From assembly GCF_030028105.1 (NCBI RefSeq), contig NC_092380.1, positions 17,075,144 through 17,139,143 of the forward strand: DNA of 64,000 bases, in the 5' to 3' direction. Made by a program: the position numbers and the translations under genes. Positions 2,387 through 47,549 of this stretch are shown here, one piece after another (position 1 is the stretch's first letter; each line of letters starts with the position of its first letter). The notes under the pieces were generated by a model that saw only the letters and a list, made by a program, of their open reading frames with translations, was not told the origin of the DNA and ran no database searches. This DNA is from Mobula birostris. Lineage: Eukaryota.

Positions 2387-2488
2387 AAATACCCAGAGCA
2401 CGCCATCTACAAGGTCCTTCAGCTGATGATGCGTCGGGGGGAGATCCAGCATCGCATGCAGCGCAAGGTGCTTTACCGTATCAAGTGA
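2387..2488 (+). CDS. MCM5: MCM5 last coding exon
   Basis: Pyrimidine tract plus cgcag| acceptor, phase 0. [33 protein letters not shown] is the MCM5 C-terminus. Confidence 0.97.
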
Positions 2489-2625
2489 TGGCTGCCGCCT
2501 GGCCCAAGAGAGAGAGGAGGTGACTCCTGCATGACTGGCAGATACAGGTGCCCCTGTCTGATGGTGCTCATCCCTTGCCTTTCTGGTCTCCCATCCTAGC
2601 CAGGTCACTGGGAGTCAAACCGGAC

Positions 2626-2744
2626 AATAAACCATGTCCCAGCTCTGAACACACTTCATCCGGGCTGTATTTTTACCTACCTTGATTTTGATAAAGAAAG
2701 AAGTTTGTTACACAACACAGCTGCCTTTGTTATTCCCCAATAAA
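2626..2744 (+). terminator. MCM5 candidate polyadenylation signals (AATAAA at 2626 and 2739)
   Basis: Two AATAAA hexamers about 140 and 250 nt after the stop codon. Confidence 0.65.
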
Positions 2745-3049
2745 GTTGCTTGTCAGAATGAATTGTGTTCCTATGTTCTCAATAGGTTTCAATGGGTACA
2801 TTTCATGTCAGACAAATGTATACAATATACATCCTGAAATTCTTTTTCTTCGCAAACATCCACGAAAACTGAGTGCCCGAACGAATAAATGACAGTTAAA
2901 TGTTAGAACCCCAAAGCCCCCCTCCCACGCATAAGCAGTAGCAAATTGATGACCCATCATGGGTATATATTCCCAGCTCCCACTGATGCCCTCCCTTCCC
3001 CTGGACTGTCGCACCCAGATCCCTTCAGATTCGTCACACTGACTTCCAT

Positions 3050-6000
3050 TTTCTTCAGAGGCATCGCAGCTCGTGATTGTGAGTGTCTGCTGGTGTGTGG
3101 GAAGGGTACAAGCTTCAGATAGTAGATGAGTGACCACCAGGAGTAGTAAGGGGAGTAATCATTTGGTGTAGGCTTCCCATCAGTGGATACTGCTGGGGAG
3201 AGGGGTGACCTGTCAGGGCTGTGAGGCTCAACAGGGAAGGGTAAAGTCAGGTAGAACGCTAGGGAAAGGAGGTTCTGTGGCTGGGAAAGAGACCGGGATG
3301 ATGTGTTCCCTCCTAGATGATAGGATCAAGAATGGCTGCAGAATGTTCTCAAGAGGGATGGTGAGTAGCCAGAGTTTGTGGTGCACATTGACACTGGTGA
3401 TGTGGACGGAAAGGGGGAAAAGGTTCTGTGCAGTGAGTATAAGGAGTTAGAGAAGAGGCTGAAGTACAGGAATGTGAAGGTAGTAGTCCTGGATTACTCT
3501 CAGTATCATGTGCTAGTCAGGGCAGGAACAGAATGATAGCACAGGTGAAGGAGTAGCTGAGGAACTGGTGCAGGGGGCAAGGTTTCAGATTTCTGGATCA
3601 TTGGGATCTCCTCTGGGGGAGATGTGACCTGTACAAAAAAGGACGGGTTACACCTGAACCCGAGGAGGACCCATATCTTTGTGGGCAGTTTTGCTAGCGA
3701 TGTTGGGGAAGGCTTAAACTAACTTGTGCAGTGGGGCGGGAACCAGAGAGAGGGCAGTTTATATACAAATCAATGCATTGTGTAGTGAGACTGTGAGGAA
3801 GGATGGGCATTGGGGCAAAATAGAAAACGGTGATGAATACAGGACTGGAGGTGCTGTACTTGAACGCGTGCAGTATCTGGAATAAAGTAGATGGTCTTGT
3901 AGCGTAGTTAGAGACCGGCAGGTATGATGTGGGCATCTCTGAGTTGTGGCTGAAAGATCGTAACTGATAGCTTAACATCAAATCCTTAGGAAGTGGTGAC
4001 ATAAGAACGGAAGGTGTAGAATTCCTCTGGGTAAGAGTTAAGAAACTGCAAGGGTAAGAAAACCGATGGAAGTTGTATATTCTGAACACTAACCAGGATG
4101 TAGGCTATAAATCACAACAGGAGATTGAAGAGGTAATATTATGAGTCACGAGAGATTTCAATATGCAGGTAGATCTGGCAAATTAGATTGGTGCTGGATC
4201 TCAAAAGAATTTGTAGAAGGCCTATTATACAACTTTTTAGAGCAGTTTGTGGTTGAGCCCACTAGGGGAAAGGCAATTCTGGATTTGATGTAGTGTAATG
4301 AACTATATTTGATTAGGGAGCTTAAGGTAAAGGAACCCTTAAGGACGCAATAGATAGGATTTACTGTGCAGTTTGAGAGAGGGAAGCTAATGTATTAAAG
4401 TGATGTAAAGGAATTACAGAGGCATGAAAGAGAAGCTGGCCAAAGTTGATTTGAAGGGGACGCTATTAGGGATGATGGCAGAACAGCAATGGCTGAAGTT
4501 TCTGGGGGCAATTCAGAAGGCGCAGGATAGATACATCTCAAACGTGAAGTATTCTAAAGGGAGGATGAGATAACAGTGGCTTGACAAGGGAAGTCAAAGC
4601 ATAAAAGCAAAAGAGAGCATATAATATAGAAAAATTAGTGGGAAGATGGATGATTGGGAAGCTTCTTAAAAATCAACAGAATGCAACTAGCCATGTGAGA
4701 AAAGGTGAAATATGAAAGTAAGCTTGCCAATAATTTTAAAAGATACATAATTTTTTCCAGATACATAGTATAAAAGAGAGGTAAGTGGATATTATGACAC
4801 TGGAGAGGTAGTAATGGGGCACAAAGAAAGGGCAGACAAACTTTATAAGTATTTTGAGCTGGTTTACACTGAGTGTAGTTGCTATTACTAGGGAGAAGGT
4901 GCTTGGAAGCTGAAAGGTCTGAAGACAGATAGGTCAGATGGACTGCAACTCAAGGTTCTAAAAGAGGTAGCTGATAATATTGTGGAGGCATTAGTAATTT
5001 TCCAAGAATCTAGATTCTGGAATGGTTCTGGAGAATTGGAAAATTGAAACTGGCACTCCAATCTTTAAGAAGAAAGGAAATAATATATCAATTAGCCTGA
5101 CTTCAGTAGTTGGGAAGATATTGGGGACCATTATTAAGGAGGGGGTTTTGGGGTACTTTGAGACTTGTGTTAAAATAGGTCAAAGTTAGCATGACAAACA
5201 TGAGAAAATCTGCAGGTGCTGGAAATCTAAGCAACACATAAAATGCTGGAGGAACGCTGGAGGTCAGGCAGCATCGATGGAAAAGAGTAAACAGTTGGCA
5301 TTTTGGGCTGAGGCTTTTTATCAGGACACAGCATAGTTTCCTTGGGGAAAATCTGTTGAAATTCTTTGAGGAAATATTAGGCAGGATAGAGAAAGAGTCA
5401 GTGGATGTCATTTATTTGGATTTCCAGAAGACCTTTGACAAGGTGCCGCACATGAGGTTGCTTAAAAAGATCAGAGCCCATGGTATTACAGGAAAGATAC
5501 TAGCATGAATCAAAGATTGTCTCCTGCCAGTCAGCCAACGTGGTCTTTTCTGGTTGACTGTGGGTAACAAGTAGCGTTCTGGGTTGGTATTGGGATCGCT
5601 TCTTTTCATGTTATATGTCAATTATAAATAAAAAAAAATTAATGATTAGGATGATGGAATTTATGACCGTGGATGACACAAAGATGGAGGGGCAGGCAGT
5701 AAGGAGTCTGCTGAAGGTTTTGGATAGACTGGGAGAATAGGCAAAAATGTGGCAGATGGAATATAGTGTAGGGAAGTGGAATGGTCATGTTCTTCGGTAG
5801 AAGGGATAAAAATGTAGACTTTTTTTAAATCGGGAGTAATTTCAAAAATCAAAGGTACAAAAGGACTTGGGAGTCTTCGTGTGGGATTCTTTAAAAGGTT
5901 AACTTGTAGGTTGAGTCGGTGGTAAAGGAGGCAAATGCAATGTTAGCATTCAATTCGAAGGGTTAGAATACAAGACCAAGGGTGTAGTGCTGAGGCTTTA

Positions 6001-6520
6001 TAAGGCATTGGTCAGACCACACTTGGAGTATTGTGAGCTGTTTACCTGAGAAAACTGCTGGCATTGGAGAGGGTCCAGAGCAGATTCTGGGAATGATAGG
6101 GTAAATGTATGCAGAGCATTTGATGGCTCTGGGCCTGCACTTGCTGGAATTTAAGAAGAATGGCGTGTTAGGAATTCTTATTGAAACCCGTTGAATATTG
6201 AAAGGCCAAGATAGAGTGGATCTGCAGAGAATGTTTCCTTTAGTGGGTGAGTCTATGGACCAGAGGGACACAGCCTCAGAATAGAGAGATGTCTATTTAG
6301 AACAGAGATGAGAAATATCTTTAGCCAGAGAGCAATGAATCAGGAATTCATTGCCACAGACTGTTGTAGGGGCCAAGTCATTGAGTATATTTCAAGTGGA
6401 GGTTGATAGGTTCTTGATTAGTCAGGACATCAAAGGTTATGGGAGAAGACAAGAGAATGGAGTTGAGAGGAATGATGGAATGGCAGAGCAGACCCAATCA
6501 CTTAATTCTCCTGTGTTTTG
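3050..6520 (+). mobile_element. Degenerate CR1 LINE (ORF1 esterase remnant plus ORF2 endonuclease/RT remnants)
   Basis: ORF1-like DLYK..DGLHLNPR near 3625-3665. ORF2 motifs YLDFQKTFDKVPH (~5412-5450) and LYKALVRPHLEYC (~6000-6035). Many stops and frameshifts; boundaries approximate. Confidence 0.85.
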
Positions 6521-7735
6521 TATTCTGGAAAGGGTTAATTAGTCTGCGTGAAAATGGAGATACCTCGCTCTCCCTTATTACGGAGAGAGAGAGCCTGTGT
6601 TATGTCGAATGCCGGGTGAACACTGTAGTCTCTGGGGTGACTGCAAGTCTGTGTCTTTGCTGTTCCCTTGCTCGCGCCTGAGTGCTCGGTGGCGGTACAG
6701 AAGCTTTTTTTTGCCGGTGGGGGGAGGGGGGATTGTTGCTCACTGCCGCTTACGCGCGGGAGGGGACCTTGGGGTTCTAACATTTAACTGTTGCCTATTC
6801 TTGGGGCACTCTGTTTTCGTGGATGGTTGGGAAGAAAAAGCATTTCGAGATGTATATTGTATACATTACTCTGACATTAAATTGTACCTTTTGTGAGGTA
6901 CTGTGCTGCTACTGAAATATATTTCTTTGCCCACGTACTGTTCCCATTAACCCTTCCTGCTCCACATTGGCATTGGTTTATTATTGTTACATGTGCTGAG
7001 ATAGTGAAAAGCTTATCTTGTGGACTATTCGTACAGATCACGATGCAGTGGGGTAGAAGAAGGTAAAACAATAACAATCAAGTGTACAGGCCACAGTGAA
7101 AGTGCAGTGCAGTAAAGCAAGTGCAAGATTATAACGAGGTTGATTGTGAGGTCGAGAGCCCATCTTATTGTACAAGAGATCCATTCAATTGAGAGTCTGA
7201 TAACAGCAGCATAGAATCTGTCCTTGATCCTGGTGTTACGTGCTTTCGGGCATTTGTATCTTCTGCTGGATGGGAGAAGAGAGAATGTCCAGGTTGGTTG
7301 GTTTCTCAATTATGCTGACTGCTTTACTGAGGCGGAAAGAAACATAGACAGAGTCCATGAAGGTTTCTATGATGTATACTAAGCAGGTGATGGCCATTCT
7401 GGTATTGAACCCTCTATCTCCTGCTGTTCTTGCAGCCCTTGGAAGAACTGCCAGGTGCCCATGCACAGTCTGCCCCTTTCAGTTCTGGAGTACCACTCTG
7501 CTTCTCTAGAATCTCTGCTTTCTATATTTGTACCATTCCATTCTAGAATCTTCTGTTTTGAAAGCAAACAGTGTGTACTGACTTGGATGAAGGCAGCTGT
7601 GAGTGCCAGCTGGCTCCCATTGGCACCTTTGGGTGGTGTGTACAGCGGCTGAGTGTGGGCACAAGGGGAAGGGGGCAGGCGGGACTCGGTGGAACCAGAG
7701 CAGAGGCTGCCCCCGGCGTGGTGGGATGGGGCAAG

Positions 7736-8022
7736 ATGCTGGAGCAGCTTCAGAAGATCGACCAGCTAGGCCTAGCAGTGGAGGAGGCGTTTTATTCATG
7801 GACTGTCAGGAGCTGTGAGAGGCTGAGGGCCATTCCCTCTGTCCGGCTGCTGTTGAAGTGTGGCTGCGGCTTGTTGGCCTTCCTGGGGAGGGTGCTGTGC
7901 TTCAGGACGCTGGTGGCTTACTGGGGCTGGGCAACCAACTGGCTCAACGAATGGGTGGCAGAGTTTGAAGCCATAGCACAACTGGATCTGAAAATGCCGC
8001 TGGGAGTCCTGGAGGTGAACAG
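7736..8022 (+). CDS. Uncharacterised 3-exon gene, exon 1 (start codon provisional)
   Basis: aagATG at 7736, open GC-rich frame MLEQLQKIDQLG...VLEVN, ending AG|gtaac (phase 2). Confidence 0.7.
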
Positions 8023-8849
8023 GTAACGGACAAAAGGGCAGGGCGAGGTTTTATGGGTCAAAGAGCCGATTGCCCAGACCAAGGCAGAGGTGCCTTCTTT
8101 CACGCAAAGTTCCTGCAGCGCTACTTGTGAGAAGGCCGGGAGTCCCAGACCCTCGACCCACAGCACCAAAACAAGCTGGCTTCTTTTTATAACCCCACTG
8201 TTGGTAGGAAGTTTGCTCTCTTTCCCTCTAACTGAGAGGAACTTTAAAAAAAGTCATTTTTTAATGTAGTCAAAAATGCCAACTGAAAAATGGCAGCGAC
8301 ACAGAGATTACTATAAGCTTGGTCGGGGGAAGAGGGAGGGAGATTCCTCACAAGGTGGAACTGGGGCCTTATAAGGGTCGAGGGATAGCTCAGTGAGGCG
8401 AGAAATAGAGAAGAGTTACTGGGGAGGATTGTTGACTGACCCGGTTACAGAGAAGTGGAAAAGGGTATCAAAGAGTCACAGGGTGAATGGAAAGATAAGG
8501 AAAAATAAATCAGCCATGATTGAATGGTCATGCATACTCGTTGGACTGAATGGCCTAATTCTGCTCCTAAGAGCAGTGGGCTGTTGGTAAGTTAGTGGGG
8601 TGACGTTGGAGAAGGGCCAGGTGATGCTACAAGGCCAGTGTTGTATTAGGGAGAGTGGGTGGGATGCTGGAGGTGCTTGGATTAGAGCCAAAATGTTATG
8701 AGGATATATCTACCACCCCCTCTTCCCCAAGCCCTTCGCCCCTCCTGCTGTCCCCACTCCTCTGTAGCTCCTCTCCTCCCCAATCCAACCCCCTCCTTCC
8801 TCACCGTCCTCTGTGCCTCCCACCGCTCAGCCCTCCGCTCTGTGTTTAG

Positions 8850-9017
8850 GAAAAGGTATAGCTACTATCAGAACCTGCAGAATCAGATGCTGCCACTTAA
8901 CTGGGACCCGAGCACCCACCTGAGGCAGGATCTAGCCGCCGCCATGACCCTCAGGAAGTACCGCAATCATCTCCTCGACGTGCTGGAGTGGGCCAACCAG
9001 TCTGCAGACAAACAGAG
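8850..9017 (+). CDS. Uncharacterised 3-exon gene, exon 2
   Basis: Long pyrimidine tract, tttag|G acceptor, AG|gtac donor, phase 2-2, 168 nt: KRYSYYQNLQNQMLPLNWD...WANQSADKQR. Confidence 0.75.
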
Positions 9018-9304
9018 GTACACAGTGTCTGGCTCGCTGCTGGGGCAGTTATAAAGCGATCATCCTTGCTATTGTGGTGAGGCATTCATCACAAACCACC
9101 ACCCCACCCCACCCCCTGTCACCTACTGCCACAGCAGGATACAGGAGCGGAGACCCTCACGTCCAGCTGGTGGGCAAAGACAAAGCACTCCCAGCTCTGT
9201 GTGGGGGTCAGTGAAACCCAGGATGAGCTGGGGCTGTCTGAGTCCTCTCAGTGACCCAAGGCTCTTGTCCCCTAACCCTTGACCCAGGCTCATGTTATAC
9301 CTAA

Positions 9305-9815
9305 GCAACACACACACACAATGCTGGAGGAACTCAGCAGGCCGGGCAGCGTCGATGGAAAAGGGTAAATGGTTGACGTTTCGGGCCGAGACCTTTCATC
9401 AGGACTGGGGGAGCAAAAGATGAGAGGTCAGAGCAAGAAGGTGGGGGGAGGGGAGGAAGAAGCACAAGGTAGTAGGTGACAGGTGAAACCATGGGAGGAG
9501 GAAGGGTGAAGTAAAGAGCTGGGAAGTTGATTGGTGAGAGAGATACAGGGCTGGAGAAGGGGGAATCTGATAGGAGAGGACTGAAGGCCATGGAAGAAGG
9601 AAAAGTGGGGGAGGAGCACCAGAGGGAGACAATGGACAGGCAAGGAGATAAGGTGAGAGAGGGAAAGGGGAATGGGAACAGTGAAGTGGGGGAGGGGGGG
9701 GATTTACCAGAAATTTGAGAAATCGATGTTCATGCCATCGGGTTTGAGGCTACCCAGACAGAATATAAGGTGGTGTTCCTCCAACCTGAGTGTGGACTCA
9801 TTGCGACAATAGAGA
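9305..9815 (-). mobile_element. Penelope-like element 3' fragment with hammerhead-like motif
   Basis: Reverse complement gives the end of the GIY-YIG ORF (..RLEEHHLIFCLGSLKPDGMNIDFSNF), a pyrimidine-rich UTR and CTGATGA..GAAACGTC at 9371-9406. Confidence 0.8.
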
Positions 9816-9893
9816 CACGATCAGATTAAACACTATTCTGACTCCTACCCATATGCTGTTAATAGCTGTGTATGTTGACCTCTGAGTGTGAGT

Positions 9894-10199
9894 GGGCACG
9901 TGGCCAAGTGGTTAAGGCATTGGACTAGCTACCTGAAGGTCGTGAGTTCGAACCCCAGCCGGGGGAACGTGTCATGTCCTTGAGCAAGACACTTAACCAC
10001 ACATTGCTCTGCGATGACACTGGTGCCAAGCTGTATGGGTCCTAATGCCCTTCCCTTGGACAACATTGGTGTCATGGAGAGGGGAGACTTGCAACTGCTG
10101 GTCTTCCAAACAACCTTGCCCAGGCCTGTGCCCTGGAGAGCGAAGACTTTCCAGGCGCAGATCCATGGTCTCGCAAGACTAACGGATGCCTTTACTTTA
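9894..10199 (+). mobile_element. tRNA-derived SINE
   Basis: Pol III A box TGGCCAAGTGG and B box GAGTTCGAACC followed by a non-tRNA body. A related head occurs at 46727-46954. Confidence 0.8.
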
Positions 10200-10432
10200 T
10201 GTCCCAGACTGGGATGTATATGGATGGCTGAGAGTAGGAGTAGGTTTGGGTTTGGCCGAATATCCCTCTGCTGATGTAAACTCGACCTGGTCAATCAATC
10301 CCCGCTGGTCCTAATGCTGCATTTCTATGGAGGGACATTGGGGAGTGTTTTGGGGGCTTTACTGGTGTGATTGGGGAGAGGAGAGTGGCTGCTTTTACAG
10401 CCAAGACTATCAGGGACTGCTGTTTATTGCAG

Positions 10433-10604
10433 GATCATAATTCAGGAGGGAGAGCTGGCCAAAAACCTCCAAGCACTGGACGATCTGAAGAAGATCTGGA
10501 GACTCCTCGTCGAGGAAGAGAAGCGACTGAATGAGGAGCTGAAGAATCACCCAATGCAGAGTTTTACACAGGAAACCTCCAGCACAGGCTCTCTGCTCGA
10601 TTAG
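10433..10604 (+). CDS. Uncharacterised 3-exon gene, exon 3 (coiled-coil-like C-terminus)
   Basis: ttgcag|G acceptor in matching phase 2. IIIQEGELAKNLQALDDLKKIWRLLVEEEKRLNEELK...LLD*, followed by AATAAA at 10641. Confidence 0.75.
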
Positions 10605-10902
10605 CCTTTTGTCGCACCTCCAAGATTCTTATAAATAATAAATAAAAGCATTCAAAGAAAGATAAGTTGACAATTTGTTTCAATAGCCCAGTGGTTTCTT
10701 AGGCTGCAGACAAAACGGGTTTTGGGGAGTTATCCCTGTGCAGGCCTTGTTGGAAATGGTATTTCAGTCAAAAAGATAAATAAAAATGTCACACGGCGAC
10801 AATTGTTAAAAGTTATGTTTGCGGAATGAAGGTTTCATATAACATTCAGATGTGGCACCAAATAGATGCACTGCCCTGGGAAGAGATGTTCACATTATCT
10901 GC

Positions 10903-11284
10903 AACACTCACAACATGCTGGAGGAACATGCCGTGGAAACGATCAGTTGACGTTTCGGGCCGGAACCCTGCGTCAGGACTGTAGGGGGAAGGGGCAGAGG
11001 CCCTATAAAGAAGGTGGGGGGAGGGTGGGAAGGAGAAGGCTGGTAGGTTCCAGGTGAAAAACCAGTAAGGGGAAAGATAAAGGGGTTGGGGAGGGGAAGC
11101 AGGGAGGGGATAGGCAGGAAAGGTGAAGAAGGAATAGGAGAAAACACAATGGGTAGTAGAAGGAGGTGGAACCATGAGGGAAGTGATAGGCAGCTGGGGG
11201 AGGGGGCAGAGTGAAATAGAGATAGGGGAAGGGAGGGGGAGGGAATTACCGGAAGTTGGAGAATTCAATGTTCATACAAAGGGG
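10903..11284 (-). mobile_element. Penelope-like element 3' fragment with hammerhead-like motif
   Basis: Minus strand reads MNIEFSNFR*, then the UTR and CTGACGC..GAAACGTC. Flanked by cacattatctgc/cacatcatctgc (12-bp TSD, 1 mismatch). Confidence 0.8.
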
Positions 11285-11429
11285 CACATCATCTGCTTTC
11301 TCAGACAGAGTTGACAGTCCAGCGACAGAGTTTGTAAGTTGGGTGGGAGGGTAGGGTCTGTGTGTGTGTGTGTGTGTGTATGTTTTGGGGATTTGTGCTC
11401 TCACTGCTTCCCAATCTGACAACTCAACT

Positions 11430-11830
11430 CTCAACTGGCACCAGTAACAGCAGGTTATCTGGTCACGACCCACCCAGCCAACACACTTTTTGTCCCTCTT
11501 CCCTCCGGGAGAAGGCTCAGGAGCTTGAAGACTCATATGGCCAGATTTGGGAACAGCTTCCTTCCAACTGTGATAAGACTGCTGAATGGATCCTGAGCCG
11601 GATCTGGGCCGCACCCTCCAAATATCCGGACCTGCCTCTCGGTTTTTTTTTTGTACTACCTTACTTTCCATTTTTCTATTTTCTATTTATGATTTATAAT
11701 TTAAATGTTTAATATTTACTAATTTTTACTATTTTTAATATTTGTAATCCAGGGAGTGGGAAGTGCAGAATCAAATATCGCTGCGATGATTGTACGTTCT
11801 AGTATCAATTGTTTGGCGACAATAAAGTAT
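11430..11830 (+). mobile_element. Rex1/Babar-type LINE 3' fragment
   Basis: Encodes HPANTLFVPLPSGRRLRSLKTHMARFGNSFLPTVIRLLN, the typical C-terminal motif, followed by an AT-rich tail. Confidence 0.7.
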
Positions 11831-12388
11831 CTACTGTGTTGCAGTGGGTGGGATCTTCCTGTGCCTGGAGTGATTGTCACTTTTCCGACAGAGTTCTGTT
11901 GAGGTGAAAGGGGCTTTGAAATGGCAAGTGCTGTTCCGCAGTTAAGCTGCTCCATAATCCCTGGCCCAGAGGTAACAGGTACAGTGTACCTGGTTGTCTT
12001 TTATAGGCCATGTTTTTAGACTGCTTTTGCACTGCTCTGCACAGAAGTTCAAAGTACGCTTACAGTGTACAACCTTGAGATTCGTCTTCTTGCAGGCAGT
12101 CACGAAACAAAGAAGCACGATAGAGCCCATTCAGAGAAAAACCCCACACAACAAGAGCATCAAATAGCCAGTGCGTGTGGGGAAAAAACTGAACACATCA
12201 CGCGAACAATAACAAGTCAACAAGTGGCATTGACCGTAGAGTTTCCAAAAGTGAGTCCTCAGCACTGTGCCGATGGCCACAGGCCACAACTGCACGGTCA
12301 GTTCAGACCAACTCACGCAAATGGTGAAGGAAGAAATAGTTAACAAAAAGCACAAGGAACATGAACTGCAGAGACCCCAGAGTGAGTC

Positions 12389-13410
12389 CACAATCGCGGA
12401 GTGCGTTCTGTGCTGAGGTGAGCCAGTCCTGAAGCCCAATGGTTGCATAAGAACGTGAGAAATAGGAGCAGGAGTCAGCCATCTGGCCCATTGAGCCTCC
12501 TTCAATAAGATCATGGCTGATCTGACCATCTACCTGCCTCTTCCTCATAACCCTCAATTCCCCTACTATGCAAAAATCTATCCAACCTTGTCTTAAATAT
12601 ATTTACTGAGGTAGCCTCCACTGCTTCACTGGGCAGAGAATTCCACAGGCATCAGCTGTTTCTGAACTTGACGGCTTGGGACCCAAGATTTCTGCATCTT
12701 CTGCCTGCCGGTAGAAGCAAGAGAGACCGGTCAAACCCAGGCAGACGGTGCTGAACGCCTGTTTGTTTACCGCTCGTCCTCAACAATTTCAATCTTGCCT
12801 GATACTTTAATTGGCTCGGAGCAATGCAGCCGACCGTAGGTTCATGTTCCACCATTAGGGATCGATAGAGAATCTCAACCATGCCTCATCCCCCGGGAGA
12901 TCGCAGCAGTGCCAGATTGTTCAATCGGCCCAAAAATATTTTAAGACCATAAGACATAGGAGCAGAATTAGACCATTCAGCCCATTGAATCTGCTCCACC
13001 ATTCCATCATGGATGACCCTGGATCCCACTCAACCTCATACACCTGCCTTCTCGCCATACCCTTTGAAGCCCTGACTGATCAGGAAATGATCAACTTCTA
13101 CCCTAAATATACCCGCAATCTGCGGCAGAGCATTCCACAGGTTTACTATTCTCTGGCTAAAAAATTTCCTCACCTCTGTTCTAAAGGGTCACCCCACAAT
13201 TCTGAGGCTGAGCCCCCTGGTTCTGGATAACCCCACCACAGGAAACGTCCTCTCCACATCCACCCTATCTAGTCCTTCCAATGTTCGGTAGGTTTCAATG
13301 AGATCCCCCCCACACCCACATTCTTCTAAATTCCAGTGAGTACAGGCCCAAAGCTGCCAAACACTCCTCATATGTTAACCCCTTCATTCCCGGAATCATC
13401 CTCGTGAATA
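12389..13410 (-). mobile_element. Two CR1 3'-end fragments (12389-12650, 12945-13410)
   Basis: Minus strand gives GDLIETYRTLEGLDRVDVERTFPVVGLSRTRG and a CR1 3'UTR with short tandem tail. Confidence 0.75.
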
Positions 13411-14599
13411 TTCTTAAAAGGGAAATTATAGACTGCATTCAATCGCATTTCAGAACAAGTATATTTAGAGGAGGGTATCTAGTAGTTTTGTAAGCTGTCT
13501 GCAAGATGTCGCCATTGGTTTATCCAATAAATTTGACAGCAAATGATGGCCTTGGTATTTTTAATACTGAACAACCATATTTGTAAAGTTGCTGGCTAGC
13601 TGCTTATGAATATTTTAAGTACCGGGGGAGGGATGTGGAATGAATTTCCAATTCCAAGGGCTATGTGGGAGAGAATGCTTACATTGATCTTGGAATAAGT
13701 TAAAAGGAAGGCACAATATCTGGGCTGAAGGGCCTGTACTGTGTCATATTTTTCTATACAAATCTGCAGTCTTGCATCCTCTAAAAAGCCAGAGGAAATC
13801 TGGCTCCGTAATGTCTTTGTGCTCCTGTCTTCGATCAGGATCACTTTATGTAGGGTAGGTTTGTATTTAATTTAAGCTTTTCTTGCGAATGTGGTGTCTC
13901 TGATGCCATGTGTCTGTGATGCTGCTGCAAGTCAGCTTTCCATTGCACCTGTGCACACAAGGATTTATGCAGATGACGGTAAACTTGACTTTGACTTGGA
14001 CTCTGAGGGCACGAGGGCACTGGGGCACGGGATGTGTCCAGTTGACCAGCTCACTGGGTGCAGATCAGAAATCAGGAGCCTGGCTTTAAGATCTCTTAGA
14101 AGAGAAAAGATAGCTTTATTTGTCACATGTACAAATAGTGACACACGGAAACTGAACTCCTTTCAGACTCAGGCTGAACTACAGAGGACGGGGAGGAGGT
14201 CTGGCCCTGCACATGTAGCATGCAGGCCCACCGGTGTGTGGACACGCCCTGGTGCTCATGAACCAGATCCCCAGCTATGGGTAATTAGCCCCTCCGCCTT
14301 GAAGGCAGCCTCGGAGAGATGAAGGCTACGGGCGTAAACCGGAGTGGAGCCCCGAACACCCGTCCAGCAGCTCCTGCGCCAAGCTGGTGCCAAATGAATT
14401 GCTTCATAAGCTTTCCTTTGGACTACAGTGGTGAGGCCGAGAGGGGGATCTTGACGACTGGGCATCTCAGGATCTCCATACCTTCCGCCTAGGCTTGTGT
14501 CGATGATGGTCATCACCCATTGTACTTTGAGACAGACAGATACCAACCACATATGTTGTTTATGTCAGTGACCAAAACAGTAAGAGGATGAGCTGAGGG

Positions 14600-14790
14600 C
14601 AGTCCACAAGTCTCATCTTGCCTCTGGTGCCAATACAGCATGCCCTCAACTTCCCAACCCGTGCTTCTTTGGAATATGGAAGGAGAGTGGAGCACCCAGA
14701 GGAAACTCATATGGTCACGGAGAGACGTCACAGACGTCCCAAAGCTAGCACTGTAAAGCGTTACGCTAGCCCCTACGCCACTGTACCGCC
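14600..14790 (-). mobile_element. V-SINE-like element
   Basis: Reverse complement resembles the V-domain core (GTGACC...TTTCCTCTGGGTGCTCC) also seen at 38172-38340. Confidence 0.6.
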
Positions 14791-15339
14791 TGGATATTTG
14801 GGCTGGCGGAAGGTTTGGAGAGTACTTCAGTTTGTCGCCAATTACTTTGATGGTCCAGATTGGGGTGCAGTTTCAATAACTTTGTAACTTGGGGAGAATT
14901 AGTGTTGAGGAACCAATTGTGAGTGTCCAGGACAGGCAGCACATCATCTGCAAATTAATATCAGTGTGGGTGGGGCCCAGTCCTATAGGAGGGGGAGGTG
15001 AGTGAGCCTGATCTCTGGGCAGGTGGGATATGGGTTCCATACCTGCTCTGCTCTCTCATGTTCTGGATATGTTGTGTGTGTGGGGGGTGGGGGAGAAGCT
15101 GGAGTGGGAAGTGGGTGATCAGACTGGGAGTTCCTCTCTGATCACAGCACCCACAGACCTTTGTACAGAGTCGGCTGTGTTGCTGGTAATCCTGACTGTC
15201 CCAAGGCATGTGGCAATCGAGGCAACAGACAGAACATTTCAACTGACTCAAAGTCAGCATTTCTTTATCAAAAAGAAATCTTTTCAAGATCATTTTAAAC
15301 AGTTGAAGAGACTTGTAGGAGGAGTCTCTGAGATTTGAG

Positions 15340-15924
15340 CCCTGGAGGAAAACCCGATGCATTCTTCAAGAGGACTGCAACTTGGAAGATTTGTTTTCCA
15401 GCAAGACAATGACCCAAGCATAAAGCTAAAGCTATACAAGAATGGCTTAAAAACAACTAAGTTAATGTCCTGGAGAGGCCAAGTCAGAGTCCAGACCTGA
15501 AGCTAATTGAGAATTTGTGGCTGGACTTGAAAAGAGCAGATCACTCATGATCCCCATGCAATTTCACAGAGTTTGAGCAGCTTTGTAAAGAAGAATGGGG
15601 AAAAATTGCAGTGTCCAGATGTGCAAAGCTGATAGAGACCTATCCACACAGACTAAAGGCTGTAATTGCTGCCAAAGGTGCATCTACTAAGTAGTGACTT
15701 GAAGGGGGTGAATACTTATGTAATCAATTGTTTTGTGTTTTATATTTGTGATGAATTTAGATCACTTTGTAGAGATCTGTTTTCACTTTGACACAAAAGA
15801 GTCTTTTTCCATTGATCAGTGTCAAAAATACCAAATTAAATCCACTGTGATTCAAAATTGTCAAACAATAAAACATGAAAACTTCTGGGGGGGGAGGGAG
15901 TGAATACTCTTTATAGGCACTGTA
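15340..15924 (+). mobile_element. Tc1 transposon 3' remnant with right TIR
   Basis: FQQDND..., PSQSPDLKLIENLW (DD34E region). Ends CACTG|TA, with a GGGGTGAATACT-like direct repeat at ~15705 and ~15898. Confidence 0.88.
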
Positions 15925-16459
15925 ATCACAGGCATCTTTAAGTACCCTTGGATATATGTTGTCTGGCCCTGGAGACTTATTAACTTTCAGCCTTTTCACC
16001 TGAAGCAGGACCTCACTTTCTAAGATCTCTAAGTCACTTAAAGCAACCTAATTTTTCTCTACACTTCCTAGCACATTGCTAACATATTCACAGGTGAATA
16101 CTTAAGCAAAATATGAGCTAGGAGTGTCCATTATGTCCTTCTCTGCATAATGTAACATCCCACTATTATTCCTAATACACTTAACCTCCTTCCTGACTTT
16201 TCTTTTACTACTAAGGTATTGAAAAGACTCTCTTGGGGTCAATCTTAGCATTATCAGCAATATTCTTCTCAACCTGCCTTCTGGCAATGTGAATTTTCCT
16301 CTTGATTACAGTTCTCATATTTTCATATGCTCTATGGCTAACGTCATTACTATATTTTCTGTATTCTTAAATATATCTTTTCTTCAATAAATTATATGTA
16401 CATATTTATTCATCCATGTAGTTTAGTCTATTTTTATGACCCCAGTTAACGCCGGCGCT

Positions 16460-16705
16460 TGTGATTGATGTAAATATTAACCAATAAATGAAGGGGAAAT
16501 GACAATTTCTGCAGCGGCTGAACTCGAGATCAAATATTCACCAATTAGTGCAAAGAAGGGTGCTGATGATGACTGATTGATGTGAATATTCACCAATCAG
16601 TACAAAGATGAGAAAACGTCACGGTGTTGTCACCTCATTGTCATAAGGTACGCACCAATAACCTCCCAGTGGCCTCCCGCCGGAGGCGGGCATTGCGATT
16701 GAGTG
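16460..16705 (+). promoter_or_regulatory. NDUFA6 promoter with four CCAAT boxes
   Basis: CCAAT at 16481, 16541, 16593 and 16655, immediately upstream of the CpG-rich first exon. GC box GAGGCGGG near 16683. Confidence 0.65.
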
Positions 16706-16708
16706 GAG

Positions 16709-16844
16709 ATGATGGCGGCGGCCGGGCGCGCCGTTGCGGCGTCGGGGAAGGTGGTGAAGCCGCTCCTGTCCCGGGAGCAGAGCGAAGCCAAGCGGCGGGT
16801 GCGGGAGTTGTACCGGGCATGGTACCGAGAGGTGCCCAACACCG
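16709..16844 (+). CDS. NDUFA6: NDUFA6 (complex I B14, LYRM6) exon 1
   Basis: [45 protein letters not shown] with the LYR motif; G|gtaag donor (phase 1). Confidence 0.96.
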
Positions 16845-17224: not shown

Positions 17225-18132
17225 CGCAAATACGAGGAAATTTGCAGATGCTGGAATTTCAAGCAACACACATAAAAGTTGCATTCGTCCCCCCCATCCC
17301 TCCCCATCGACCTCCCTCCTGGCACTTACCCTTGTAAGCAGAACAAGTGCTACACATGCCCTTACACTTCCACCACCACCATTCAGGGCCCCAGACAGTC
17401 CTTCCAGGTGAGGCGACACTTCACCTGTGAGTCGGCTGGGGTGATATACTGCGTCCAGTGCTCCCGATGCAGCCTTCTATATATTGGCGAGACCCGACGC
17501 AGACTGGGAGACCGCTTTGCTGACATCTACGCTCTGTCTGCCAGAGAAAGCAGGATCTCCCAGTGGCCACACATTTTAATTCCACATCCCATTCCCATTC
17601 CCATTCTGACATGTCCATCCACGGCCTCCTCGACTGTAAAGATGAAGCCACACTCAGGTTGGAGGAACAACACCTTATATTCCGTCTGGGTAGCCTCCAG
17701 CCTGATGGCATGAACATCGACTTCTCTAACTTCCGTTAATGCCCCACCTCCCCCTTGTACCCCATCCGTTATTTATTTATATACACACATTCTTTCTCTC
17801 ACTCTCCTTTTTCTCCCTCTGTCCCTCTCACTATACTCCTTGCCCATCCTCTGGTTCCCCCCCCCCCTTGTCTTTCTCCCTAGGCCTCCTGACCCATGAT
17901 CCTCTCATATCCCTTCTGCCAATCACCTGTCCAGCTCTTGGCTCCATCCCTCCCCCTCCTGTCTTCTCCTATCATTTTGGATCTCTCCCTCCCCCTCCCA
18001 CTTTCAAATCCCTTACTCACTGTTCCTTCAGTTAGTCCTGACGAAGGGTTTTGGCCTGAAATGTCGACTGTACCTCTTCCTAGAGATGCTGTCTGGCCTG
18101 CTGTGTTCACCAGCAACTTTTATGTGTATTAT
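17225..18132 (+). mobile_element. Penelope-like element, 5'-truncated with inverted 5' segment
   Basis: GIY-YIG remnant VIYCVQCSRCSLLYIGETRRRLGDRF. 17225-17282 is an inverted copy of the terminal repeat. 15-bp TSD ggggatttaattgaa at 17210-17224 and 18133-18147. Confidence 0.92.
18034..18069 (+). ncRNA. Minimal type-I hammerhead ribozyme motif in PLE terminal repeat
   Basis: AGTC-CTGACGA-agggttttggcct-GAAA-T-GTC-GACT: intact core, stem I AGTC/GACT, GUC cleavage triplet. Confidence 0.65.
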
Positions 18133-18639: not shown

Positions 18640-21600
18640 AACACACATCAAAGTTGCTGCCTGGCCTGTTGCGTTCACCAGCAACTTTGATGTGTGTTGC
18701 TTGAATTTCCAGCATCTGCAGAATTCCTGTTGTTTGCGTTTAAAATCACTACTGCGAAGCCTCTTCCGGTGATGCCTACACCGAAGAAGTTTAGATCCTC
18801 TCTTCGACGGGAGTTCAGTGAAACCATCTCTCACTGCTCCCCATCTGTAATTTCTTCGGCTCTTCAACTTTTCGACCACACTTTGACTCAGACTCGCTAT
18901 CACAGCCATATATCCTTTCTTGGAACGTGCCTCCGTCGCCAACTTACTCCAGTTGGCTTTAGGATTCGTTTCCAAACCTCTCAATTTGGACCTTCTGAGG
19001 ATCCCAGGTACTCACATTTTATTGACTCTGCCTCTCGCCGCTTCTCCCGTCAAGCTCTGAAGGCGACTCTCTCCGCCATGAGGAGGTACTTGGTGTCCCT
19101 TTCCCAGACCCTTCCACACCTTCGGGACACTTTCTTCGCTGTCTGTAATGGTCCTACCCGTTATTTCATCCTCCCTCAGATTCACGCCTGCAATCGCCGT
19201 TTTTTTGATTTTGCCATGTTAGGCAAAGATCGCAAGATCCTACATCTACGGACTCCAGAGCCTGCCGGCCCCGACGCTAGCAGGCATGAACTTCAGATTG
19301 CGGCCACTGCCATTGATCTCGGCGGCTCCAACACCTCAGGGCACATTCAAAACCCGGACTCCAGCAACGACCATGGACACCTTCACAGCGATTGCGCAAC
19401 CACCAACTGCAACGCCAGCCTTGAACTCCAGGCCGGGTCTTTATGTGCTGCTATTGTGACTCCTGTCTCCCCTTCCCCCACCACCACTCTGCAACCCCGT
19501 CTCCCTCAGATCCCACGGTCAGCTCTTGGGTTCTCAGAGGCTCCATCTTCCTCTCACCCCAACCCTCCCCTCTCCATTGACACCCCCAGCCTCCCCCCTC
19601 CCCCCCCTCTGATCCCAGCTCTCATCCGTGCCGGGTCTTTACCATCCCCTCCGACCTTCAACTGTCGGAGGCAGAACGCTGTGTTCTCAGTATGGGCCTC
19701 ACCTTTGTCCCCCTTCGCCCACACCTCAGCGAGTTCCGTGTTTGCCATGATGCGGAACTTTTCTTTCTCCGTCTCCGAGCCTACTTCTTCGGCAAGGACT
19801 CTTCCACCCCCACCGATGACCCCTTCTCCCGTTTTCAACCCTCCTCTTCTTCATGGACACTCCGCTCTGGTCTTCTACCTGCTCTGGATCTCTTTATCGC
19901 TAATTGCCGAAGGGACATCAACCGTCTCGACTTCACCGCACCTTGTCCCCATTCCAACCTCACTCCTTCGGAACGCTCTGCTCTCCACTCCCTCCGCACT
20001 AATCCTAACCTTATTATTAAACCCATCGATAAGGGGGTGCTGTTGTAGTCTGGCGTACTGACCCCTACCTTGCCGAGGCACAGCGACAACTCGCGGATAC
20101 CTCCTCTTATTTACCCTTCGATCGTGACCCCACTAAGGAGCACCAGGCCATTGTCTCCCACACCATCACCGACTTAATCCGCTTAGGGGATCTCCCATCC
20201 ACTGCTACCAACCTTATAGTTCCCACACCCCGCACTTCCCGTTTCTACCTCCTACCCAAGATCCACAAACCTGCCTGTCCTGGCCGACCTATTGTCTCAG
20301 CTTCCTCCTGCCCCACCGAACTCATTTCTGCATACCTCGACACTGTTTTATCACCCCTTGTTCAATCCCTTCCGACCTATGTTCGTGACACTTCTCACGC
20401 TCTTAAACTTTTTGATGATTTTAAGTTCCCTGGCCCCCCACCGCTTTATTTTCACCATGGATGTCCAGTCCTTATATACTTCCATCCCCCATCAGGAAGG
20501 TCTCAAAGCCCTACGCTTCTTTTTGGATTCCAGACCTAATCAGTTCCCCTCTACCACCACTCTGCTCCGTCTAGCGGAATTAGTCCTTACTCTTAATAAT
20601 TTCTCCTTTGGCTCCTCCCACTTCCTCCAAACTAAAGGTGTAGCTATGGGCACCCGTATGGGTCCTAGCTATGCCTGCCTTTTTGTTGGGTTTGTGGAAC
20701 AATCTATGTTCCGTGCCTATTCTGGTATCTGTCCCCCACTTTTCCTTCGCTACATCGATGACTGCATTGGCGCTGCTTCCTGCACGCATGCAGAACTCGT
20801 TGACTTTATTAACTTTGCCTCTAACTTTCACCCTGCCCTCAAGTTTACCTGGTCCATTTCCGACACCTCCCTCCCCTTTCTAGATCTTTCTGTCTCTGTC
20901 TCTGGAGACAGCTTATCCACTGATGTCTACTATAAGCCTACTGACTCTCACAGCTATCTGGACTCTTCTCACCCTGTCTCTTGCAAAAATGCCATCCCCT
21001 TCTCGCAATTCCTCCGTCTCCGCCGCATCTGCTCTCAGGATGAGGCTTTTCATTCTAGGACGAGGGAGATGTCTTCCTTTTTTAAAGAAAGGGGCTTCCC
21101 TTCCTCCACTATCAACTCTGCTCTTAAACGCATCTCCCCCATTTCACGTACATCTGCTCTCACTCCATCCTCTCGCCACCCCACTAGGAATAGGGTTCCC
21201 CTGGTCCTCACCTACCACCCCACCAGCCTCCGGGTCCAACATATTATTCTCCGTAACTTCCGCCACCTCCAACGGGATCCCACCACTAAGCACATCTTTC
21301 CCTCCCCCCCTCTCTCTGCATTCCGCAGGGATTGCTCCCTACACAACTCCCTTGTCCATTCATCCCCCCATCCCTCCCCACTGATCTCCCTCCTGGCACT
21401 TATCCGTGTAAGCGGAACAAGTGCCACACATGCCCTTACACTTCCTCCCTTACCACCATTCAGGGCCCCAAACAGTCCTTCCAGGTGAGGCAACACTTCA
21501 CCTGTGAGTCGACTGGGGTGATATACTGCGTCCGGTGCTCCCGATGTGGCCTTTTATATATTGGCGAGACCCGACGCAGACTGGGAGACCGCTTTGCTGA

Positions 21601-22234
21601 ACATCTACGCTCTGTCCGCCAGAGAAAGCAGGATCTCCCAGTGGCCACACATTTTAATTCCACATCCCATTCCCATTCTGACATGTCCATCCACGGCCTC
21701 CTCTACTGTAAAGATGAAGCCACACTCAAGTTGGAGGAACAACACCTTATATTCCATCTGGGTAGCCTCCAACCTGATGGCATGAACATTGACTTCTCTA
21801 ACTTCCGCTAAGGCCCCACCTCCCCCTCGTACCCCATCTGTTACTCATTTTTATGCACACATTCTTTCTCTCAGTCTCCTTTTTCTCCCCTTGTCCCTCT
21901 GAATATACCTCTTGCCCATCCTCTGGGTACCCCCCCCCCCGTCTTTCTTCCCGGACCTCCTGTCCCATGATCCTCTCGTATCCCCTTTTGCCTATCACCT
22001 GTCCAGCTCTTGGCTCTATCCCTCCCCCTCCTGTCTTCTCCTATCATTTTGGATCTCCCCCTCCCCCTCCAACTTTCAAATCCCTTACTCACTCTTCCTT
22101 CAGTTAGTCCTGATGAAGGGTCTCGGCCTGTAACGTCGACTGCACCTCTTCCTACAGATGCTGCCTGGCCTGCTGCGTTCACCAGCAACTTCGATGTGTG
22201 TTGCTTGAATTTCCAGCATCTGCAGAATTCCTGT
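18640..22234 (+). mobile_element. Near full-length Penelope-like retroelement (RT + GIY-YIG, probably Neptune-like), frameshifted, in NDUFA6 intron 1
   Basis: ORF from ATG 18772 (MPTPKK) to stop at 21811, split by several frameshifts. RT motifs MDVQSLYTSI, GVAMGTRMGPSYA and RYIDD; Cys-rich linker CKRNKCHTC..HFTC; GIY-YIG VIYCVRCSRCGLLYIGET. Terminal repeat at both ends and 13-bp TSD tgttatatagggt (18627-18639, 22235-22247). Confidence 0.95.
22106..22141 (+). ncRNA. Hammerhead ribozyme motif of the full-length PLE (core mutated GAAA>GTAA)
   Basis: AGTC-CTGATGA-agggtctcggcct-GTAA-C-GTC-GACT. Confidence 0.55.
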
Positions 22235-43688: not shown

Positions 43689-44789
43689 GGAATCAACACA
43701 GTAGGGACCTCCAAACCAAACTGCGTTAAAGGGTCGGTAATAGTTGGTGATCGATATTTACTTAAAAAGGCAACTGGAATGTGTAGAACAAAAGTGAACG
43801 ATAGTGTTAAGATCTAAATCGAAGGGCCAAGTGGTTTGCTCCCACAACAGATGGATTGCACACAAACCCTATTGTCACTGATTACACTTTAAAAAAGACT
43901 TAATTAGTTGCAAATTCTTTTGAGATTTATTGGAATAGCTCCGGGACTATTAGGCTGGAAAATCAGACGAAGGGAGGAGGGTGACAGAAAGAGAGGTAAT
44001 CAGAAGGAAAGTGGTCTAATTAACAAATGATTCAAAGGCAAGGAGCACAGATTCAAACTGAAGGGCAAAAGAAGCAGGTGCAATGCAAGAGGAAATCTTT
44101 TGCAACACACACGCACACACACAATGCTGGAGGAACTCTGTAGGCCAGGCAGCATCTATGGAAAGTAGCAAGACATACAAACCTGCTGGATTTCCAGCAT
44201 CTGCAAGTTTTCTCTTGTTTGTCTATGGCAAGGAGTGCATCTGAGGTTTTGGGCCGAGACCCTTCCTCAGGACAAATCTTTTGTTCGGTAATAATCTAAT
44301 ACTTGCTGCCTATAACTTTGCTGAAATCATTGAAGCAATGCTTTCACAGGAGAATTGGAAAGGTACTTGAGGAAATGAACGTGGGATTGGGAATAAATGA
44401 TCTGTATTACAGGGTTTTATATGACATCGCTGGCCAGAATGACTCCTAGCACTTTAATTCGATGATTCTAAGTTATTTCTGATCTGAAATTATTTGAATT
44501 ATGAATGACATTGCATGAGTCAAAACTAAGGATATGGGTAATCGAACGCAGATGCACGACAGTTTTCAATCCTTGCTTTAAAATGATCCATTTTTCTCAT
44601 TATTTGTAAATTAAGTAATTTCCCTTCATAAATGTTCACGTTTCTATTTCGTGCCTACGTATCCATGGGAGATGGGAATCGCAATCACTCGTTAGGTCGG
44701 CACTGCACCTCCTATAATGTAAACGATGAATTTATAAAATATCGAATTTATACTTAAACAAGGGCCGGACTGGGTGTGGGGGCAGTCGA

Positions 44790-45017
44790 TGTGGCACGGA
44801 AGAGGTTACGCCAGAGGTGAACTGCAGGTGGCAGTGTCGCGGGAGCTTTGGCTGCTCTCGCTCTCGACTTCGGCACGAACTACCGGGAGCGGGAGCGCGC
44901 CTGTGACATGGGAGGTGCGAACGAAGGTTGAGGATTGTTGTCAGGTGACACAAGTCAGCTGATCCTGGGGTTTCAACTCTAACTCCTGGGCTGCAACTGA
45001 GCAAGGATCAGTGGTGG
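44790..45017 (+). other. NAGA: Probable non-coding first exon / CpG promoter of NAGA
   Basis: CpG-rich unique sequence with CGGAAG (ETS-like), ending in a consensus donor GG|gtaagt at 45018. The NAGA ATG exon begins with an acceptor and so needs an upstream exon. Confidence 0.55.
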
Positions 45018-46726
45018 GTAAGTAAGTGGCAACGGGGGCAAGAGGGAGGGAGATTGCCAAAAGTGGCAGAGGGAAACAGGAGGGGTGGGGAAAGGGGGTA
45101 GTGGAGGAAGGGATCGTTGGCAGAGGAAGAGAGGATGATGAATGAAGCACTAGCAATGGGAGCGAGGGAGGCAGGGTGGGAAATGGAGAGAATATTGGAA
45201 GGGGGCGGCGATAGAGCGATCATGCACATCGCGATGGAGAGAGAGATAGAGACTAAGCGTTAGTGAATGGTGGCAGAGATGGGCAAACGGGAAGGCAAAG
45301 AAGCGTTACCAAAAATAGCAGAACTTCTTGCCAGTGGCTGTGATGTGTGTTTGGGTTAGAACAGTGTATGAGCTCGTTTGAGCTTCGGAACTCGGTTGCT
45401 TTGGTGGACGGGCTATGGGGGTGTTTGGGAAGAAGGAAAATAAATTTCTCTCAGCTGGGGTGACTGTGAGGCGTGTGTAGCCCATTGTCAGCTATTGTAT
45501 GACCAGCTTGGTAAGTGGGGCGAGGGTCAGGGAGACTGTAGGTATGATATGAAATATAGTCATAGAACATGACAGCACAGAAACAGGCCATTCGGTCCGT
45601 CGAGTCCATGCCGAACCATTAATCTGCCTAGTCCTATCAACTTGCACCTGGACCCCTCCATACCCCTCCCATCCATGTACCTATCCAAACTTCTCTTAAA
45701 TGTTGAAGCTGACCTCACTCCACCACTTGTGATGGCAGCTTCATTCCACACTCTGAGTGAAGACGTTTCCCCTCATGTTCCCCTTAAACATTTCACCTTT
45801 TACCCTTAACCTATGACCTTCTAGTTCTAGTCTCACCCAACCTCAGTGGAAAAAGCCTGCTTGCATTTACCCTGTCTATACCCCTCATAATTTTGTATGT
45901 CTCTATCAAATCTGCCCTCAATCTTCTACTATGTTCTAGGGAATAAAGTACTAACCTATTCAGCCATTCCCTATAACTCAGATCCTCAAGTTCTGGCAGC
46001 ATCCTTGTAAATTTTCTCTGCACTCTTTCAATCTTACTTACATCTTTTCTGTAGGCAGGTGACCAACTTTGACCTCACCAATGTCTTATGCAACTTCGAA
46101 CTCCCAACTCCTGTACTCAGCACATTGATTTATGAAGGTCAATGTTCCAAAAGCTTTCTTTACGATCCTATCTACTTGTGACGCCACTTTCAATGAATTA
46201 TTGGTCTGTATTCCCAGATCCCTCTGCTCTATCACATTCCTCAGTGCCCTACCACTCACTGTGGAAGACCTACCCTGGTTGGTCCTCCCAAAGTGCAAAA
46301 CTTGTCGGCATTAAATTCCATCTGCCCATTTTTTGAGCTGGTCCAGAACCCTCTGCGAGCTTTGACAGTCTTCCTCGCTGTCCACTATACCCCCCAATCT
46401 TGGTATCATGCATCGATTTGCTGATCCAGTTTACCACGTTATTATCCAGATCATTGATATAGATGACAAACAACAACATATCCAGCTCCGATCTCTGCAG
46501 CACACCACTAGTCACAGGCCTCCACTCACAGAGGCAACCAACTACAACCACTTTCTAGCTCTCTTGAAGCCATTGTCTAATCCAATTTACTACCTCATCT
46601 TGAATGTCAAGAGATTGAACCTTTTTGACTAACCTCCCATGTGGGACCTTGTCAAAGTCCTTCCTAAAGTCCATGTAGACAATATCCACTGCTTTGCCTT
46701 CATCAACTTTCCTGGTATCTTCCTTG

Positions 46727-46954
46727 GGGGGGGAGGGGAACGTCGACTCAGACCATGAGAGGCCTGCGTCGGAAATTTTCGTGCCTTACAAGGCGCAGAT
46801 TGGAAGTCTGTGTGGGGCGCCACTCCTCACACACACACTAGAGCAATGTGTGGTTAAGTGCCTTGCTCAAGGACACAAACACGCTGCCACAGCTGAGGCT
46901 CGAACTAGCAACCTTCAGATCACTAGGTGAATGCCTTAACCACTTGGCCACGTT
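46727..46954 (-). mobile_element. tRNA-derived SINE inserted in CR1
   Basis: Minus-strand A box TGGCCAAGTGG and B box TAGTTCGAGCC. 7-bp TSD ttccttg at 46720-46726 and 46955-46961. Confidence 0.82.
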
Positions 46955-47549
46955 TTCCTTGAAAAACTCTATAAGATTGGTTAGACACAAATTACCATGC
47001 ACAAAGCCATGTTTTTCACTATCTCTAATCAGTCCCTGTCTATCCAGATACTTATATATATCCTGTCCCTTAGAATACTTTCTCACTACTGCTGTCAAAT
47101 TCACTGGCCTATAATTTTCTGGCTTATTCTTAGAGCCTCTCTTAAACAATGGAACAACATTATCCATCCTCCAATCCTACGGTGTCTCACCCATGACTAG
47201 TGATGTTTTAAATATCTCTGCCAAAGCCCCTGCAATTTGTGCACTAGCCTTCTCCCCCCCCCCCCCATAAGGCCCGAGGGAGCACCTTGTCAGCTCCTGG
47301 GGATTTATCTATTATAATTTGCCTCAAGACAGCAAACACCTCCTCCTCTGTAATCTGTACAGGGTCCATGTCCCCGCTGCTGCATTGCCTCGCATCTATA
47401 GACAATGTGTCCGTCTCCTGAGTAAATACAGATGCAAAAAAAAAATTAGTTTTAAGATCTCCCCCATCTCTTTTGGCTCCATGCATAGATTACCAATCTG
47501 ATCTTCCGGAGGACCAATTTTGTCCTTTGCAATCCTTTTGTGCTTAATA

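Follow-up and report, generated by a model that had tools for sequence, protein, structure and literature searches.

In a stretch of 64,000 nucleotides of the Mobula birostris genome (NC_092380.1, positions 17,075,144 to 17,139,143 of the forward strand; hereafter the window, numbered from its first letter), a gene of three coding exons lies on the forward strand between positions 7736 and 10604. The gene is real, spliced, single-copy and common to elasmobranchs and the coelacanth. Judged by sequence, it belongs to the unnamed orthologous group of the coelacanth protein LOC106706862; it is already in databases as unnamed predictions, and the family is uncharacterised. We tentatively predict a soluble product made up of helices only, which would act as a subunit and bind a conserved partner.

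Gene structure and transcript evidence

The three exons are joined by GT-AG sites, both introns are in phase 2, and the joined exons make up 627 nt, that is, a stop-free frame of 208 codons followed by TAG (Table 1). Exons 1, 2 and 3 measure 287, 168 and 172 nt, with GC fractions of 0.57, 0.55 and 0.50, respectively. The exon coordinates, splice sites, intron phases and 208-residue open reading frame (ORF) given in an earlier, sequence-only reading of this DNA were reproduced exactly when the sequence was read again, both peptide segments that it quoted occur in the translated product, and the AATAAA that it placed 37 nt past the stop is the copy at 10641, which overlaps another at 10637. The 4.0-Gb genome has a single match for exon 2, as for exon 3 and for the DNA surrounding exon 1, and neither a further exon nor a second copy of the gene was found within the 64-kb window.

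Use of the exon junctions was observed in a related species. Seven sequencing runs (X1-X7) were considered, none recorded as RNA; their RNA status is guessed. Run X2, from a species about 92% identical to the window, gave one spliced contig of 659 nt at a depth of 1576, in which 7582-8020 (33 differences, 3 gaps) is joined across GT..AG to 8848-9018 (14 differences, no gaps). The 27-letter loose end of this contig corresponds to 10434-10460 with 2 mismatches, against 9 mismatches at the next-best place in the window, and both junctions, 8022^8850 and 9017^10433, are thus used. The splicing evidence comes from a single run in a single study, and expression is poorly gauged by contig depth. Unspliced X2 contigs reach into intron 2 at depths of 5.9 and 13.6; the deeper one ends at 10460, the exact end of the spliced contig, as expected where two paths of the assembly graph meet. 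In the four runs aligned over 7400-10800 (X1, X2, X4 and X5) no contig covers the body of exon 3 (10478-10591), and this exon therefore rests on the junction and on coelacanth homology rather than on full RNA cover. Exon cover was also missing from X1, X4 and X5 over 7400-10800 and from X3, X6 and X7 over 8660-9085, which says nothing on expression.

At the 5' end, the frame is open upstream of the ATG at 7736, for 58 codons where about 55 had been counted, and a longer N-terminus had been suggested on this ground. The comparison with X2 does not support it: its three indels, at 7640, 7642 and 7709 (net -1), all lie upstream of the ATG, so that the 58 codons are not a conserved frame, while none falls in the covered coding part, and two shark predictions described below share the start methionine. 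One protein from Logan carries 11 extra N-terminal residues. The inferred 5' end is that of the X2 contig, in which 23 unaligned letters precede 7582; contigs cannot show a start. The presumed 5' untranslated region (UTR) holds two out-of-frame ATGs, at 7587 (21 codons) and 7726 (30 codons, running across the main start). No CpG island was found at the gene; within the window, NDUFA6 and SMDT1 each have one. The missing island, the TATA-like box at 7523 and the two upstream ORFs hint at restricted, regulated expression. Separately, a contig of run X1 (from a close relative, with 4 differences over 193 nt) covers 7400-7592 at a depth of 5.3; it spans the presumed promoter and reaches into the beginning of exon 1, and could be DNA, read-through or the result of an upstream start.

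Table 1. Features of the gene, in window coordinates.
Feature	Position	Strand	Evidence or remark
TATA-like box	7523..7529	+	about 35 nt ahead of where the X2 contig is inferred to begin; weak and possibly due to chance
Transcribed exon 1 ahead of the ATG, interpreted as 5' UTR	7582..7735	+	X2 contig; 13 listed substitutions, 3 indels, net -1
Coding exon 1, residues 1-95 + 2 nt	7736..8022	+	X2 contig without indels; protein homology
Fast-changing patch, residues 41-49, within the hydrophobic/amphipathic segment	7856..7882	+	X2 codon changes
Conserved block 1, residues 63-95, including the invariant P88-L89-G90 helix break	7922..8020	+	alignment of relatives; models
Intron 1, GT-AG, phase 2	8023..8849	+	X2 contig passes over 827 nt
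Coding exon 2, 168 nt, symmetric phase 2-2	8850..9017	+	X2 contig; homology
Invariant block, residues 130-143, LRKYRNHLLDVLEW	8950..8991	+	identity across four species
Intron 2, GT-AG, phase 2, repeat-rich	9018..10432	+	loose end of the X2 contig equals the start of exon 3
Coding exon 3 + stop, conserved amphipathic helix ~157-189	10433..10604	+	coelacanth homology
Two overlapping AATAAA, putative polyadenylation signals	10637..10646	+	sequence only

Relatives and age of the gene

A search with exon 2 returned the whale shark (Rhincodon typus) prediction g38298.t1 from EukProt, whose cluster also contains a hypothetical protein of the bamboo shark Chiloscyllium punctatum (chiPu_0017140, GCC38625.1, UniRef A0A401T7P1). 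When a shark relative was compared by phmmer with 1.84 billion representatives, two matches were obtained, an unnamed exon-1 protein from Logan and the uncharacterized coelacanth (Latimeria chalumnae) protein LOC106706862 (XP_014353861.1, 186 residues, E 1.1e-24), and a profile search found the same three clusters among 7999 scored candidates. All of these proteins align to the window product without gaps, with identities of 105/151 (whale shark), 102/152 (bamboo shark), 73/96 (Logan) and 67/182 (coelacanth). Exon 1 shares 60-72 of 95 residues with the elasmobranch-like relatives and 32 of 88 with the coelacanth, exon 2 shares 40 of 55 with the sharks and 18 of 55 with the coelacanth, and exon 3 is identical to the coelacanth at 15 of 37 positions, a score reached by none of 5000 shuffles. 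Searched against the 4.0-Gb genome, the coelacanth protein finds the three exons, in order, as its top three matches; the next one (L006, E 0.9) was considered as a paralogue and rejected, as it showed no likeness on inspection.

The coelacanth orthologue makes the gene older than the split between cartilaginous and bony fishes, so that its origin would lie in a jawed-vertebrate ancestor, and the lineage restriction that had been proposed, taken as restriction to cartilaginous fishes, is not supported, given the same match. The sequence-only reading had made the gene stand or fall with spliced reads and with conservation of the frame in related species; the X2 contig is spliced and the frame is gapless as far as the coelacanth. 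Its description of an intact, poorly annotated coding gene outside any named family also holds, as Pfam, PDB and fold searches gave no significant match and all orthologues are unnamed. No teleost, tetrapod or invertebrate relative appeared in the phmmer or profile searches, one match there being unnamed, and the gene has probably been lost, or altered beyond recognition, in teleosts and tetrapods. A word-based search with exon 1 among proteins of at least 168 residues found no relative among 609 candidates; the relatives of 151 and 107 residues fall below that length range, and the coelacanth protein was overlooked, which indicates that such a search misses easily. The identifier LOC106706862 occurs in none of the about 8.4 million papers searched, and searches on other accessions and related topics likewise listed nothing that describes the gene; subscription journals and supplements lay outside their scope.

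Conservation along the protein and proposed role of the product

Conservation is unevenly distributed. The number of residues identical to the coelacanth per 15-residue segment is 2-5 over residues 8-62, 9 over 68-92, 0-1 over 98-122, 14 over 128-142 and 7-8 over 168-192, and the conserved parts are residues 63-96, the invariant 130-143 and the exon-3 helix. Residues 130-143 are identical at 14 of 14 positions in the window product, both sharks and the coelacanth, against an overall coelacanth identity of 37%, and the two listed X2 changes within this block are both synonymous. Other residues that are kept include P34, G51, P88-L89-G90, E157-G158 and the tryptophans W63, W143 and W174. In the alignment, no cysteine position is common to the window product, sharks and coelacanth. 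Within exon 1, conservation is lowest in residues 31-62, which are amphipathic; 4-8 of these 32 agree with the coelacanth.

AlphaFold models of the coelacanth and whale-shark proteins contain helices only, and these break at the same conserved proline and glycine residues in both. The prediction is of long helices and a C-terminal hairpin that turns at E157-G158; the hairpin has the best confidence (70-74). A homodimer prediction, run without an alignment, scored 0.00 and gave no answer. Long helices, together with invariant residues on all faces of one predicted helix, suggest packing against a partner, and the hydrophilic N-terminus (judged by reading the sequence) and the lack of conserved transmembrane-level hydropathy favour a soluble intracellular protein. 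The product would then be an intracellular component, either subunit or adaptor, of a helical-bundle complex, docking on the conserved partner through the invariant 130-143 helix. The chain may fold poorly alone and complete its fold on the partner, while the variable amphipathic helices of residues 31-62 might touch a membrane surface or a second, fast-changing partner. Expression would be tissue-restricted, with the germ line as a first guess.

Several points weigh against this proposal. The partner, location and tissue of the product are proposals only, and the germ line is a guess drawn from the analogy of other helical proteins that evolve fast and are patchily retained. An active site or a folding core would explain the invariant block equally well. 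The AlphaFold models are poor (predicted local distance difference test, pLDDT, 57.5 and 56.1; predicted template modelling score, pTM, 0.31 and 0.22) and were built on an alignment of 6 rows, so that the impression of a chain that folds on its partner may reflect only a shallow alignment. No RefSeq elasmobranch entry for the gene was returned by the protein collection; cover or annotation of fish proteins is therefore incomplete, and absence elsewhere is weak evidence. Finally, the ratio of non-synonymous to synonymous change between X2 and the window is ~1.0 (confidence interval 0.39-3.1), which fits weak constraint in this lineage. A homodimer prediction, run without an alignment, scored 0.00 and gave no answer.

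Alternative explanations

The product may belong, as a highly diverged member, to a known family of small helical proteins (SYCE3-like, COMMD-like, or a leaderless cytokine of the IL-6/IL-11/CNTF type) that works as such, which we consider unlikely, if still credible. Its size and all-helical prediction are compatible with such families, and residues ~22-62 match the COMMD4 N-terminal domain recurrently, though weakly, over ~40 residues, at E values (0.26-0.62) that are not significant; PDB sequence searches returned this match or nothing. Pfam searches with the exons, with the shark prediction P0001 and with an alignment (A3) gave only PF15738 (E 0.05) and PF17560 (E 0.11), far under the cut-off, and fold searches of PDB, a wide PDB set and viral structures with the low-confidence coelacanth model gave no significant match. 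The locus was not among the 10 genome matches of the COMM_HN profile or the 36 of the SYCE3 profile PF15191 (Synaptonemal_3), the best of which (E 6.3e-8) is a probable SYCE3 exon of this genome on contig C8 (L008:1501-1611, minus strand). A comparison of the product with one SYCE3 exon by hhalign gave 0.2%, and SYCE3 is absent from the 50 listed fold matches of the same coelacanth model. For cytokines of the IL-6/IL-11/CNTF type, no Pfam or PDB sequence match to any member was obtained, the models, which are unreliable, show only short loops, and no cytokine is among the listed fold matches. The product may also resemble the C-terminus of SYCE3, as well as helix D in cytokines of the IL-6 type. 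In the ESM Atlas exon 1 had no usable match, and the shark prediction P0002 drew an unnamed cluster as its first match (0.91) and DUF7730 (0.89, sharing few features), which were not accepted.

It is rather improbable that the gene, although it functioned in the ancestor and in sharks, now experiences relaxed selection in the window lineage and is heading for the loss that it seems to have suffered elsewhere. Besides the ratio near 1 against X2, this reading draws on W92, which is common to the sharks, the Logan protein and the coelacanth and is replaced by leucine in the window product, and on the 96% identity of the whale-shark and bamboo-shark proteins, while 17 of 120 codons are different between the window and X2. 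Among the 47 differences between X2 and the window, 39 are listed, 26 of them coding, with 6 synonymous changes and 20 non-synonymous ones in those 17 codons. Seven of the 17 lie within the nine codons of residues 41-49, a clustering reached by 77 of 100000 permutations (p ~0.0008), and the invariant block is spared. This pattern, the absence of indels and stops from the coding part against three indels in the 5' part, the retention of both splice junctions and a confidence interval that extends to 0.39 all argue against relaxed selection. With one species pair compared, the pattern in the window lineage may reflect selection on the patch or a relaxation of constraint.

A similarly low probability is given to the idea that the family was kept by cartilaginous fishes and the coelacanth alone, disappeared independently from ray-finned fishes and from tetrapods, and marks a complex tied to biology that the former share. 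Urea-based osmoregulation, the salt gland and reproductive mode are examples of such shared biology. If true, this complex would combine an invariant docking helix with the fast-evolving patch of residues 41-49.

The sequence-only reading had favoured a membrane-associated coiled-coil protein. As a membrane-anchored protein of tetherin-like layout, it would have residues 38-65 cross or enter the bilayer; we hold this to be doubtful, with about the same small probability as the two preceding ideas. The best 19-residue hydropathy reaches 1.9 at residues 38-56 of the window product and 1.94 in the Logan protein, the hydrophobic moment is 0.5-0.6 at residues 37-54 in the window product and bamboo shark, and long helices come after the segment. 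The peak, however, contains two charged residues, falls to 1.5 in both sharks and is gone from this site in the coelacanth (best value 1.1, elsewhere), X2 changes place Arg, His and Ser in it, and there is no hydrophobic C-terminus, so that a membrane anchor is not conserved. As for the coiled coil, the exon-3 helix is conserved and amphipathic, but the heptad proposed for the C-terminus is weak: the best hydrophobic share of a/d positions over the last 50 residues is 0.57 in the window product and 0.47 in the coelacanth, and the helices are predicted at low confidence.

A small enzyme or ligand-binding helical domain with the invariant block as its active site (R131, Y133, R134, H136, D139, E142 and W143) is very unlikely: the block is fully invariant and its residue types are common in active sites, but invariance on every face of one predicted helix suits a buried interface better, and no pocket-forming fold was predicted or matched. 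A chance ORF or non-coding transcript, to which the lack of a named family and the low language-model recognition of exon 1 (1510) might point, is refuted, to near certainty, by gapless coelacanth conservation over three exons and by conserved splicing.

Meaning of the finding

Vertebrate genes that predate the split between cartilaginous and bony fishes and have neither a recognisable domain nor a model-organism relative are uncommon, and they are invisible to work on zebrafish, mouse and human. Scattered "hypothetical" records are here united as one family, and the three-exon structure missing from two shark predictions is supplied. Should the product bind a partner as proposed, the 14-residue invariant block would serve as bait in the search for it. 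The finding alone shows no new mechanism.

Neighbourhood of the gene

Within the gene, a tRNA-like short interspersed element (SINE) in intron 2 (9881-10190) has heavy contig cover in all four runs aligned over 7400-10800, and other repeats lie nearby at ~8430-8650 and ~9310-9810. From peptide motifs, we take the neighbours to be MCM5 (plus strand, ending at 2488), NDUFA6 (plus, ~16.8-31.4 kb), SMDT1 (minus, ~42.4-43.6 kb) and NAGA (plus, from ~52.4 kb). MCM5 lies directly upstream of the gene and NDUFA6 (2488-16800), in the place of CYP2D and TCF20, the neighbours of NDUFA6 in human; no CYP-like frame was seen among window ORFs of at least 90 residues. In the human genome PHETA2 stands between SMDT1 and NAGA; two PHETA2 motifs were not found in that interval of the window (43700-52300), which contains a 135-nt run of N at 48104-48238, and PHETA2 may be absent or diverged here. 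A reverse-transcriptase element of the long interspersed element (LINE) type occupies 18691-21811 on the plus strand in the first intron of NDUFA6; it contains two open frames, of 456 and 422 residues, and a CpG-rich 5' part, and its 3' end is repeated at ~17276-17713 and ~59712-60095. Myoglobin is reported to adjoin Naga in sharks and batoids, and Smdt1b and Ndufa6 in the elephant fish (PMC13023373), so that the window is the same conserved block; neither the gene under study nor MCM5 appears in the passages on the block.

Comparison with known systems

The weak alignment of ~40 residues of exon 1 with the N-terminal helical domain of COMMD4 is a likeness to COMMD proteins, from which the product differs in having no predicted COMM beta-domain or strand, as far as low-confidence models tell, and no Pfam match. 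SYCE3 and other central-element proteins of the synaptonemal complex are small and all-helical, have helix-turn-helix ends and assemble with partners. They serve as a working analogy for a small, predictedly all-helical product whose hairpin is predicted at low confidence; SYCE3 differs in sharing no sequence or profile match with the product and in having its own locus on contig C8. The Rhincodon typus and Chiloscyllium punctatum predictions have the same start methionine and no gaps, but lack exon 3, one of them ending with exon 2 and the other continuing into unrelated sequence, and since the missing exon is conserved, both shark gene models are probably incomplete. The closest counterpart of the whole product is Latimeria LOC106706862: it starts 7 residues later, ends ~15 residues earlier and is not hydrophobic over residues 31-62, yet it aligns without a gap over 182 residues, matches all three exons in order and carries the same invariant block.
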